From the NCBI GenBank assembly GCA_964016885.1, contig OZ024742.1, positions 26,040,001-26,104,000 of the forward strand: a stretch of 64,000 nucleotides of DNA. Reading direction: 5' to 3'. The position numbers and the translations under genes are program-made. This document shows, in pieces, positions 1,245 through 53,670 of this stretch (its first letter is position 1; each line of letters opens with the position of its first letter). The notes under the pieces are model-generated. The model was not told where the DNA came from. It saw only the letters and a program-made list of their open reading frames with translations, and did not search any database. Source of the stretch: Eledone cirrhosa. Lineage: Eukaryota.

Positions 1245-1437
1245 AACGAAGGAAAAGTGGTAAGGAACCAGGTGGACCATAACGCACCAAAGTACTCAAT
1301 ACTTGAGGTAGTAGAGTGGGTAATAGGAACCAGTAAGACCCCGACAGCTGAGCTCAAGCCGTCTCGACGGCTAATTCAGTCCAGAATTAGCCGTCGAAAC
1401 GGCTTGAGCTCAGCTGTCGGGGTCTTACTGGTTCCTA
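1245..1437 (-). mobile_element. Family A fold-back mini-element, copy 1
   Basis: Asymmetric palindrome centred at ~1380 between (TA)n tracts; carries the HHR 3' half GAAACGGCTTGAGCTCAGCYGTC-GGGG. Confidence 0.9.
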
Positions 1438-1597
1438 TATATATATATATATATATATATATATATATATATATATACACGCCCGCCCCACACACGCACA
1501 TATATATATATAAATATGCATGCCTTTATGTGTGTGTCTGTATATGCATGTTTGAATGCATGAATGATTACACTAAACTTTAGATTTAGTAGAATGT

Positions 1598-1990
1598 ACT
1601 AACCCAGGTTCTGCTGCACTTCGGGCTGAGGAGGCCAAACTCTACAAGTACCGATCGCTCTCCGACAAGTTCGCGCTCATACCCTTGGCAGTGGAGACTT
1701 TTTGGTTTCCTTGGCCCTAGGGCTACCTCCCAACTTACCACCATAAGCGTTGAGGTGGCCAGCCGCATGCGTGAGCCTCGCGAGTTGTAATGGCTCTTCC
1801 AGCGCATCTCCCTTACCATCCTCCGGGGTAACGCCTGCTCCATTCTGTCTGCCGGGGTTGTGGGGAGGTCAACACGTGGGACCCCATCTGTTCACCATAC
1901 AGAGAGATGGGGAGGGCGAGAGAGATGGAGGAGGTGACAGTGGGAGTTCGGCTCTTCCACCTTCGGACCATATCCTTGTGTTTGTGTTCA
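1598..1990 (+). pseudogene. 3' end of a CRE-type (RLE) non-LTR retrotransposon; partial inverted copy at 755-957
   Basis: With one frameshift and one stop it reads SAALRAEEAKLYKYRSLSDKFALIPLAVETFGFLGPRA...WLFQRISLTILRGNACSIL, the AExxKxxKY...PLAxETxG...QRxS...RGNA restriction-like endonuclease signature. Confidence 0.8.
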
Positions 1991-2040
1991 CTATCTATAG
2001 AGATCACACACCTCAACAAGTGTGTGTATACAGCAATTGT

Positions 2041-2286
2041 AAAATCATATATTTTGGTGTCCATGAATTCTCTGGCGAATTGGTTGACCAAACACTTTGC
2101 TTAATTGTTTTATTTGTTTTAAAAAGAAATGATTCTTTTTCTTAGATTCCAGGTATTATTTGAAAGCAAAGTATTGGCCCCTAAAAAACTACAGCGGACC
2201 CTGCAGTGCTATGCGGGTAGCCGCAATGCTACGGTGCCCCCCTGGGGACCACGTGCCATTGGGCAACCTGGAAAATCCGCCATTAT
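2041..2286. mobile_element. End of a non-autonomous DNA transposon (hAT-like), copy 1
   Basis: Homologous to 3482-3735. Confidence 0.55.
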
Positions 2287-51100: not shown

Positions 51101-51454
51101 TTCCTTTACACATCTCTTACTTTGACCTACTCAACATATTCAACATAACAAGAAATTAAACACGACCCTTGGAAAGTCCCCTCTCCTGATAAACTCTTCA
51201 TGAAATAAACTCTATGATTTCCCAAAGGATTTTTGGTGAACACATTTAGGAAAACTCTCATTTATTAACACACCTGCTGATCACTTTAACCTTAAACAAG
51301 TGTTAAGATAGAAGAAGTAATGTTTGCTACATAGAGATAGTTCCCTAATCGCAATTCGTATATCTGTGATTATTTTTCTAACTACATTCCTTAACCTCCA
51401 CTTGGGAACTGTTAAAGTTGATTGAAACATTCTTAATATATTATTGGTTGGAGT

Positions 51455-51860
51455 TCGGCGGATTGGTAGTATCGGTAGAGCGCTGGACAACATGCTTTGC
51501 AGCATATAGTTAGAGCCCTTTACATTCTGCGTTTAAATCTTTCCGAGGTTAACTTTGCCTTTCATCCTTACGGGGTTGATAAAATAAAGCACAAATAACT
51601 CAATGGGTTAACTTAATCGATTTTCCCCTCCCCCAAAATTGTTGGCTTTTTGCCAACGTCAGAAACCAATATATTGCTGGTAGCTATATCGCAGGTTTGA
51701 TTCACTTTTTACGTTTTGAGTTCAAATCTGGCCAAGGTCAACTTTGCCTTAAACTATTCTAAGGGCCATCGAATAAAGTATCAGTACAGTACTGGAAACC
51801 ATATAAATAACTTCAACTCCCAAAAGAATGTTGTGCCTTGTGCCTTAACTAGAATTCAAA
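51455..51860 (+). mobile_element. Two tandem tRNA-derived SINE copies (51455-51670; ~51700-51860)
   Basis: ggcggattggtagtatcggtagagc...gaggttaactttgcctttcatccttacggggttgataaaata; the second copy has gagttcaaatc...ggtcaactttgcctt. Confidence 0.8.
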
Positions 51861-52917
51861 ATATTGCTGCTTTTTTATACATATTATCACTGTAGAGAAA
51901 ACGCAAAGACACAAGTTAATTTTATGAGCAGGATGTTCTGTGATCGAATATCTAGAACACTCAAGTGGAAATTGACGGAGATCCATTTCATACCACTAGC
52001 GGAAACGTAACGTCAAAATAAAGAATCGAACCTACATTTCGGAAAGTAATTGTATAAATGGAAGCTTAGCAATAAGAAGAAATATTTGCACATATTGTGA
52101 ATTTTTCTCCGGGCGAAAGAATTTCAGGTATAATTCAAAGATAAAAATTGCAAACTTGAAGTACTTACCATGTGAAATTAAGCACAATTAAAACACACGG
52201 TGTTTAATAAATTAAATTTCTGAAATTCAGAAAAAAATATATATAAGGATTATAAAAAAGAAAACGATTAAATTAAAGGTATCAAATCAAATAAGAATGC
52301 CACAAACGCACATAACAAAATCGTACATTATGTAAGAAAAAAGAGCGAAAATAGGCGAGATTATTTGTGTTTGTTTAATTATAAAAAAAATCTTATTTGT
52401 TAATACATTAAATTTAAGTAGGTAATTAAGATAGGGAAAGAAAACGAAGCAGAATAAAAAATAATGAATTAATTAATTATCCCCTCACCATAAAACGTGA
52501 ATTCCTCTCATTTTGGAAACAAATAATGCGAGATAAATGTAATTTCAGTTTAATATATTTTGTTTCATCTGTTTATCAAATGTATAGAAATAAATATATA
52601 TAAAGAGAGTTAGTGTAATCGATAGAATATCTGAGCTAACGAAATGGAATGTATGTTAAATATCGGGATTTTTTTCCATCCAGTGAGAGAGAATTGATCA
52701 GGATATATAAATTCATCCCCTTATTTTACTGTTGCTTACATCCTTCACAAAGACCAAGAAGGATATGCAAACGTTTAGGGAACGAAGGAATTTGGAAGCA
52801 AAACATTAAAATAAACTAACCTCAATGCAGGTATATTCCACTTATTAAAAACCATGCATTTTGTGTGTTAAACATAGTATATATATATATATATATATAT
52901 ATATATATATATATATA

Positions 52918-53670
52918 TTTAGAAACACACAGATACATGCCGACGCACACATATATACATGAACGCATCCGCACCCAACTGTGAGTTAAGGGTGCCAACT
53001 TCACCGATGTTGCTCAATGAATGACTGGGACAGACCAATTCAGTTTGAACTAGACTGAACCAGTATCAGAGTTAAAAATACATTATGAAGAGAGAAGAAA
53101 CATTTAGATATAATTAGTAATAAAATGTATCATACCTAAACTGTTCCTAAATTCCTCGACTACGTAGTTTCGTGGCATAAACAAAAACAATATATCAAAG
53201 ATATAGAGTCCTTGCGAGGTCTGCCGACTTATCAAGAGGATACCTCATTTTACTAGTCTCAAGAACGCGTCTACACGACGTGAGAAAGAATCCCAAAAGG
53301 CGGAGGGGGAGATAGTCACGCGATATAACGGTCGAGAAACCGAGCTAAGCCTCTTATAACCACGAAGAAAATACCACGGAGGCGGAGGGGGTATTCATAT
53401 CGAGGCCGTAGAAGAGGTAGTGAAGAAGGCGAGAAGTATGAGTAATGGAAGCTTTCCAGTTGTCCCCACGTCGTGTAGACGCGTTCTTGAGACTAGTAAA
53501 ATGAGGTATCCTCTTGATAAGTCGGCAGACCTCGCAAGGACTCTATATCTTTGATATATTGTTTTTGTTTATGCCACGAAACTACGTAGTCGAGGAATTT
53601 AGGAACAGTTTAGGTATGATACATTTTATTACTAATTATATCTAAATGTTTCTTCTCTCTTCATAATGTA
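52918..53670 (-). mobile_element. Family G fold-back element (very young)
   Basis: 204-bp arms 53079-53282 and 53467-53670 with no difference I could see; 184-bp spacer; unpaired tail 52918-53078; TA-flanked. Confidence 0.95.
53509..53596 (+). ncRNA. Type I HHR motif with a U3-A8 covariant core (mirror at 53153-53240 -)
   Basis: TCCTC-TTGATAA-GT(C)GGCA[44 nt]TGCCAC-GAAAC-TACGTA-GTC-GAGGA. Confidence 0.78.

Follow-up and report, generated by a model that had tools for sequence, protein, structure and literature searches.

The palindromic insertions in a 64,000-nt stretch of the Eledone cirrhosa genome (contig OZ024742.1, G000:C3:26040001-26104000; hereafter the window) represent the 3′ termini of Penelope-like retroelements (PLEs) that have integrated into (TA)n. 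The ends of these PLEs fall at two fixed positions, S1 and S2, each of which lies immediately 5′ of a hairpin of the form RCTC…GAGY. We consider it probable that the palindromes arise by twin priming, one cDNA being started at each site. S1 is the end of the arm without a tail (the "short arm") and S2 the end of the tail on the other arm; the hairpins that follow them are called H1 and H2. An earlier note on the window had observed that the short arm stops at a TA just upstream of RCTC, and had read it as a folded-back copy of the long arm, nicked or blocked at that point.

The window comes from a 3.0-Gb genome rich in (TA)n, and its unmasked self-BLAST is dominated by microsatellites; once simple repeats were masked, many local inverted repeats flanked by (TA)n could be seen. 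Together with 140 stretches of 10 kb (116 evenly spaced over ten contigs and 24 adjoining the window) it forms a genome sample of 1.464 Mb. De novo detection of inverted repeats with (TA)n at one end only gave 142 cases in 61 clusters, of which the 32 with a defined tail were retained as families; the dropped clusters were chance or SINE repeats, read-through views of retained families, or had no (TA)n-bounded tail. These 32 families, found through the (TA)n-flank criterion itself, gave 667 matches in the sample: 238 ending at S1, 262 at S2, 15 at a TA elsewhere and 96 in other ways, with 56 reading through, a class that includes some tail-length variants or other microsatellites. At identities of at least 88%, (TA)n follows S1 in 204 of 212 ends. 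Because the seed queries extend only ~40 nt upstream of S1, ends along a whole element were examined in family A, using its full natural 3.54-kb unit as query. TA-flanked ends were found at +1 (28), at +4 (one) and at the tail end (45), and at none of the remaining TAs among the 242 in the unit, so that the non-random position claimed in the earlier note is borne out and there is no scatter over internal TA sites. Eight further family A alignments stop at -8 to -14 in diverged subfamilies, and their flanks continue to S1. The family A tail as query gave 30 loci.

In the window itself, seven tail-less ends of family A lie at about 1436, 3747, 4685, 13609, 26211, 26752 and 45818. As had been reported, six of them stop at ...TCCTA followed by (TA)n, and the seventh (26211) stops ~2 nt earlier, at TTTTCATA. 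All six junction strings quoted for the different families are present (A at 1327-1314 on the minus strand with five variants, B2 at 11969, C at 22792, D at 18833 (-), F at 40982 and 43908 (-), and G at 53083 (-)). The shared TA at these ends is real, but it is partly microhomology with the (TA)n flank, which leaves the end ambiguous by 1-5 nt, and the ends of family C, while near the motif, are spread over several TAs within ~13 nt of RCTC. TA-flanked loose ends at both S1 and S2 were also found in contigs of the public run X1, which may be the assembly's own sample, and loose ends at S2 in the public run of a second organism. A third end class before the last GAGCAC of family H29 was not seen, and young A copies showed no evident excess of arm ends at the hammerhead cleavage site. 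Runs of (CA)n or (CT)n between S2 and (TA)n occur only in families with ...ACA or ...CTC ends, namely at four of 30 family C loci (L278, L279, L281 and L284) and at six S2 ends of F4, F12, F13 and F14 in the sample; this suggests telomerase-like stuttering at initiation or a microhomology-based choice of primer.

RCTC pairs with GAGY in a stem of 4-5 bp, of which it is the 5′ strand; a 2-nt bulge on the 3′ side and a following RCT are frequent. It occurs at most 15 nt after S1 in 20 of the 32 families, against 3.8 expected from shuffling, and the complete RCTC…GAGY follows S1 in 19 families against 0.39 expected, in support of a conserved cis element next to S1. Of the 19 families, 18 have an A-T or G-C pair at the first position (Fisher p=1e-4, the families not being independent). 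In the 19 short-loop hairpins all four core pairs are standard, the first being G-C in ten and A-U in nine and the second showing one C-G to U-A change, and the covariation score was reached by none of 500 shuffles. The same hairpin, H2, directly follows S2 in read-through copies of families A, C, F, G and H29, with variants in F9, F20 and F25; in families A and C, H1 is ACTC/GAGT and H2 is GCTC/GAGC. The distance from hairpin to end is constant at 0-13 nt, with loops of 8-70 nt and tails of ~60-180 nt. Hydra-type elements from elsewhere carry the hairpins as well. In L221, a metagenome record with 41% amino acid identity, both are located between the hammerhead and the ATG. Among the six consensi of File S7 of Craig et al. 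(2021, PMC8557442), compared by eye as sequences, Hydra-1_Ajap begins with the two hairpins, which lie between hammerhead and ATG there too, H1 stands at the end of Hydra-2_Amil and Hydra-2_Ajap, Hydra-1_Amil and Hydra-1_Crog have looser variants, and Hydra-1_Obim gives no clear picture. By eye, a hairpin containing UCUC/GAGA was also found just after the second start site in the printed template of PAc, a PLE of the Poseidon clade (Frangieh et al. 2024, PMC11167929).

The two arms of an insertion nearly always represent one end of each kind. Nearest head-to-head partners within 7 kb were S1 with S2 in 137 cases, S1 with read-through in nine, S2 with S2 in five and S1 with S1 in three; another 13 pairs, which had a read-through arm and no S1 arm, were excluded. 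One S1 end thus faces one tailed arm in 146 of 154 pairs (p=6e-34 against 50%); if the sites were chosen independently, about half of the pairs would be mixed. Rare exceptions to one-of-each pairing are L173/L174 and the RIGHT block 93568-93717, with either read-through of S2 in both arms or two tail-less arms opposed around a (TA)n. At L019:1307-1444, two family A tail-less arms facing across (TA)n each carry four A-to-G changes, on the same strand and in a 54-nt core. This was the sole locus with such a pattern in the scan, and its sequence has the appearance of double-stranded RNA that ADAR had edited before it was copied back into genomic DNA.

Comparison of the arms in 138 S1/S2 inversions showed the tail-less arm to be longer in 26, the arms not to overlap in 20 (one of them a false pair), the tailed arm to be longer in 23 and the two to be equal within ~10 nt in 49, with 20 unresolved. 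The tail-less arm therefore holds sequence absent from its partner in 46 of 118 resolved insertions, against 23 of the reverse (p=0.008), and in a strict young subset in 13 plus 11 (one of the 11 a false pair) against six. As a copy cannot hold sequence that its template lacks, fold-back fails as a general route; the arms are independently templated. Later central deletions would not be expected to favour the tail-less arm (46 against 23). The description of this arm as "short" is also misleading, as it is often the longer one, for instance in family F of the window (41070-41511, against 40887-41070 for the tailed arm) and in a family A copy (45816-45898, against 45910-46006).

At loci with 100% identical tails, S1 is constant and the axis variable, and the joins are blunt or show 1-2-nt overlaps or additions and a few micro-duplications. 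The palindrome axes are mostly private to each copy, which speaks against descent from one pre-formed palindrome, a descent that the earlier note had named as refuting its own reading. Junctions of young A copies are mostly blunt or overlap by 1-2 nt, some being loop-less perfect palindromes, and they are mirror-symmetric, with the S1 arm reaching further in eight, the S2 arm in ten and both equally far in nine. At L006, L021 and L030, all of family A, short tandem re-copies of 12-15 nt lie beside the axis, as if the reverse transcriptase (RT) had re-primed repeatedly at the RNA 5′ end. A rule by which an arm stops at the first TAT after the axis fitted the short A arms and was rejected, since an inverted arm runs through 6.6 internal TAT sites on average, though 25 of the 108 run through none.

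In the twin priming that we favour, a (TA)n target would have both of its strands cut by the RT/endonuclease, and S1 and S2 would each be the start of one cDNA. In the RNA, the hairpins would serve as handles for binding of the RT and would position it ~0-13 nt upstream, the (TA)n primer pairing there with the nearest UA, and two RT subunits would use H1 and H2, one per target strand. Both cDNAs would be antisense, their 3′ ends being joined head-to-head by template jumping or end-joining, and a perfect palindrome would result where both run off the same RNA 5′ end. The family A arm ends at -54 to -63 may represent such an RNA start; the A at -60 lies in TTAGTC, which we take to be an initiator-like word. 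In run X1 the depth of family A from S2 to -60 is some hundred times that of the open reading frame (ORF), which fits frequent priming near the RNA 5′ end, depth not being equal to copy number. H2 lies beyond S2 and would hence remain uncopied, so that only tandem or read-through copies would yield competent templates; this would explain the partial-tandem pseudo-long terminal repeat (pLTR) structure of PLEs. Several of these steps have counterparts in vitro: PAc cuts and extends both target strands, begins reverse transcription at either of two internal sites in the RNA between which the tail lies, and requires RNA to ~55 nt beyond the second start site, and a dimer is predicted for a lizard PLE (PMC11167929). 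Given such starts, measured in another PLE clade, the signal after S1 is better read as marking the start of reverse transcription than as a stop for a fold-back copy; S2, at which fold-back copies do not end, is followed by this hairpin too. Going further, and only tentatively, we propose that RNAs of the Hydra clade carry a duplicated handle (RCTC…GAGY RCT) that would load two RT subunits on one RNA, each starting 5′ of its own hairpin and on opposite target strands. Such a handle would be conserved from cnidarians and echinoderms to this genome and would make twin priming site-fixed and obligate.

Several observations weigh against twin priming at hairpin-marked starts, a reading based here on genome sequence and on published in vitro work. 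The lizard PLE showed no strand preference between start sites in vitro (PMC11167929), unlike the pairing of nearly always one S1 with one tailed arm seen here. Sharp S1 and S2 ends occur without the motif in 13 of the 32 families, including F14, which has a Hydra-type ORF upstream. The motif families are related, so that neither the counts nor the covariation represent independent events, and the aligned hairpins were selected by the motif itself. The 34 nt after S1 are weakly more stable than shuffles, with a mean z of -0.94 in motif families and -0.34 in the others. H2 was seen in five motif families and as variants, and no read-through copy was found for B1 or B2. Equal arms are in excess (49, against a mean of 27.6 and a maximum of 40 in within-family shuffles; outside family A, 29 against 14.8), which implies frequent coupling of the inner ends, whether through run-off at a single RNA end or through a fold-back at the joining step. 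Near-perfect palindromes fit fold-back as well as a shared run-off, and post-insertion deletions could be the source of some of the cases with a longer tail-less arm.

Cutting of both ends from a longer DNA intermediate, with the GIY-YIG endonuclease (EN) nicking 5′ of the hairpins in single-stranded or cruciform cDNA and joining it to (TA)n, corresponds to the cut-out reading termed "EN-mediated resolution" in PMC8557442. It explains both the hairpin after each site and the one-of-each pairing, and covariation cannot separate RNA from single-stranded DNA. We nevertheless regard it as unlikely, for the tail boundaries are RT starts on RNA in vitro, although in another clade (PMC11167929), and independently truncated inverted arms would require a separate route. 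The model of the earlier note, in which a cDNA primed once at S2 folds back to prime itself and is stopped or nicked at S1 under the direction of H1, shares its self-priming with the published reading of PLE palindromes (PMC3846280). It is in keeping with the 49 near-perfect palindromes and the 23 insertions with a longer tailed arm among the 118, and with the need of a tail for DNA recognition by the Penelope endonuclease, reported in earlier work cited in PMC11167929. Set against the 46 insertions with sequence found only in the tail-less arm, twice the reverse case, the blunt or loop-less, mirror-symmetric junctions and the repetition of the hairpin after S2, it appears distinctly unlikely.

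Two primings might also occur with the hairpins serving translation, packaging or ribozyme control, and the starts being set by UA microhomology or other RNA features. The 13 families with sharp ends and no motif, the proximity of H2 to the ATG and the wobble of S1 between TAs in family C are all compatible with this. The constant spacing of 0-13 nt to the ends despite loops of 8-70 nt and tails of ~60-180 nt, and the retention of both hairpins in the non-coding unit of family G, make it very unlikely in our view. Scarcely credible, finally, is a pre-formed palindrome amplified as a DNA transposon (a miniature inverted-repeat transposable element, MITE) or by recombination, or an assembly artefact. 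In its favour, the axes of family A are concentrated at -54 to -63 and a few of the junctions are found more than once. Against it, the axis takes many positions among copies whose tails are 100% identical, a tandem element with RT and GIY-YIG is the parent, and the ends are present in contigs of public runs, with the reservation on X1 given above. The fixed terminal inverted repeats and shared interior of a MITE or DNA transposon were not found, axes and arm lengths differing by locus, and this candidate was rejected. Twin priming remains the reading that we prefer.

The assignment of the elements to PLEs and their clades is based on motif inspection. Locus L002 of family A reads past the tail end into an ORF with RLRWR, HSDKTGN and GLYRDDG, the last being the RT motif in L002/L303, and locus B047 carries C-terminal CNCPDRSIC, YIGLT, CNLC and CKH and no CCHH; in the family A copies read, a stop codon separates the RT part from the GIY-YIG part. 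The Hydra clade is described as having a C-terminal GIY-YIG domain without CCHH, DKT, RW[KR], a CxCX5C linker, CxxC and CxH, together with a hammerhead in the pLTR, a (TA)n target and tandem and inverted copies (PMC8557442). Families A and F both have DKT in place of DKG (HSDKTGN) and RLRWR, with R for K, at the RWK motif, and the linker CxCX5C, CxxC and CxH near the C-terminus, without CCHH, was found in family A (B047). By these motifs A and F are members of the Hydra clade, and the elements are PLEs as the earlier note had suggested. As in EN+ PLEs generally, we found a single ORF with RT and GIY-YIG motifs, pLTR tandems with an inverted 5′-truncated copy, and a tail at one end only in the 146 mixed pairs. 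B2 and C are probably also of the Hydra clade, nearest-ORF links to Hydra-type ORFs numbering one for B2 and two for C by a method that also misassigned F6. The tandem unit of family G measures 592 nt and contains a hammerhead-like motif, S1, H1, S2 and H2. No long ORF was found for it, and on its sequence it is a non-coding derivative with the same hairpins.

The labels Neptune, Nematis and Poseidon, as applied to the present families, follow motif patterns that we assume to be characteristic of these clades. One copy of family D has a Neptune-type GIY-YIG ORF upstream of it, with short runs of (TA)n in the interval, and the family probably belongs to another clade. The ACTC reported after its S1 is present but has no GAGY partner. 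The six families called unrelated in the earlier note are thus in large part of one kind: A and F, probably B2 and C, and G with the same hairpins. D (18767-19032) and F22 (32714-32753) share a different hairpin after S1, GTGT-nnn-ACAC followed by CTC, which is possibly a Neptune-type equivalent. The hammerhead motif CTGATGA…GAAA was recognised by eye upstream of the tail-less end in B1, C and H29, and A (TTGAGAA), F and G show a degenerate form of its first core box. Searches of Pfam with the element ORFs gave nothing meaningful, the proteins not being recognised, and a PDB sequence search with the element proteins gave only weak chance matches. Rfam gave microsatellite and hairpin noise and no hammerhead among the 150 matches listed of 274. 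A 5′-junction protein search for further families returned only H29-type and F copies.

The window has seven family A insertions. The tailed arm of copy 1 (1244..1377, minus strand) comprises the 3′ hammerhead half, S1, H1 and an 80-nt tail to S2 in (TA)n, and its tail-less arm (1378..1436, plus strand) ends at S1 with CCTA followed by (TA)n. The tail-less arm reaches -60, 6 nt beyond the tailed arm (-54), and the junction is blunt; H1 (ACTC…TT GAGT ACTT), with 6 nt of 5′ flank, directly follows S1 at 1289..1323 (-). This copy is bracketed by a 350-nt inverted repeat of 98.6% identity with an RT-like fragment (755-1106 / 1446-1797), and is a nested insertion. Copy 2 (3746..3874) has a very short S1 arm and its tailed arm on the plus strand. 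Copies 3 and 4 are located at 4683..4870 and 13607..13804, copy 5, with S1 ~2 nt early, at 26008..26213, and copy 6, a solo tail-less arm, at 26750..26807 (-). Copy 7 (45816..46006) has a tail-less arm to ~-80 and a tailed arm to only ~-17.

The B1 insertion (2302..2716) has S2 on the left and S1 on the right, a CTGATGA…GAAA hammerhead motif, and H1 at 2364-2396 (-), while B2 (11591..12095) has S1 on the left, the tail on the right, and H1 at 11974-12004 (+). Family C occupies 22553..22890, with H1 at 22800-22835 (+), and family G 52914..53671. Family D (18767..19032), tentatively of Neptune type, has the S1/S2 architecture. Two insertions belong to family F: one at 40887..41511, with a tailed arm of ~94 nt and a tail-less arm of ~420 nt upstream of S1, and one at 43816..45751, with the tailed arm on the left (~78 nt upstream of S1) and a long tail-less arm to 45751. 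An F7 insertion absent from the earlier note (26277..26397) consists of a 61-nt S1 arm and a tail fragment from +10, without inverted repeat. Family F1 (16002-18751), which includes the window's own RT/GIY-YIG ORF fragment (16920-18209), has inverted ends, an internal inversion and an S1/S2 architecture in which RCTC is lacking. A SINE-like repeat of ~190 nt is dispersed over the window, at 12720-12906, 28180-28392, 37816-38003, 51456-51608 and 61329-61514, and we take it to resemble octopod SINEs. Minisatellite arrays with a 96-nt higher-order unit and a ~23-nt unit lie at 56703-58905 and 59187-61082, and a fragment at 18960-20100 resembles a LINE AP endonuclease by eye; Pfam gave no match to it.

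In L1 twin priming, each of the two target strands supplies a primer, and the product is a 5′ inversion attached to a 3′ segment; the no-overlap class found here resembles it. The second L1 site is not fixed and there is normally no inverted duplication, whereas the present elements have two fixed sites separated by 60-180 nt and arms that in most cases overlap. The Hydra clade (Craig et al. 2021, PMC8557442) shares with the present elements the GIY-YIG/RT motifs, (TA)n, tandem and inverted copies and probably the pLTR hammerhead, and the published consensi examined show the same hairpins. It differs in tail length (30-40 bp, against 60-180 nt here) and in a size generally below 3 kb, described there as a tendency and not a strict criterion; tandem copies of family A, which has a long 3′ untranslated region (UTR), are 3,528-3,546 nt apart and its unit is 3,544 nt (~3.54 kb). 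The text and supplement of PMC8557442 contain no occurrence of "hairpin" or "stem-loop". PAc likewise has a tail lying between two RT start sites, cuts and extends both strands and requires RNA 3′ of the starts, but belongs to another clade, shows no coupling of strand and site in vitro, and has no repeated motif or link between start sites and inverted arms reported in the accessible part of the paper (Frangieh et al. 2024, PMC11167929). Family G resembles the non-LTR retrozymes (bioRxiv 10.64898/2026.07.22.740005) in being a non-coding tandem unit with a type I hammerhead-like motif; the accessible part of the preprint covers non-autonomous tandem units only, and does not describe S1/S2 inverted arms or the two hairpins that G has. 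Inverted pLTRs with a one-sided tail have been described before, with self-priming favoured in PMC3846280 and endonuclease resolution in PMC8557442. We found no account of PLE twin priming or a twin hairpin in the literature searched, from which older subscription papers and the PAc supplementary figures were outside scope. Neither the class nor the architecture of the elements is thus new; the duplication of the start-site hairpin and the statistics of the arms appear to be.

The origin of inverted pLTRs and one-sided tails is stated to be open in PMC8557442 and PMC11167929, and the genome-wide end statistics presented here point to two primings instead of self-priming. With a short covarying RNA motif at hand, mutation or displacement of the hairpins would test two primings directly in the existing in vitro assay. 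Telomerase has its closest relatives in the RTs of PLEs, so that an RNA element setting the template start would be of wider interest. If the proposal of a duplicated handle is true, a cis cassette of ~150 nt would be sufficient for mobilisation and could serve to mobilise cargo RNA into (TA)n, and obligate twin priming would explain the tail of PLEs, their inverted pLTRs and their need for tandem copies.

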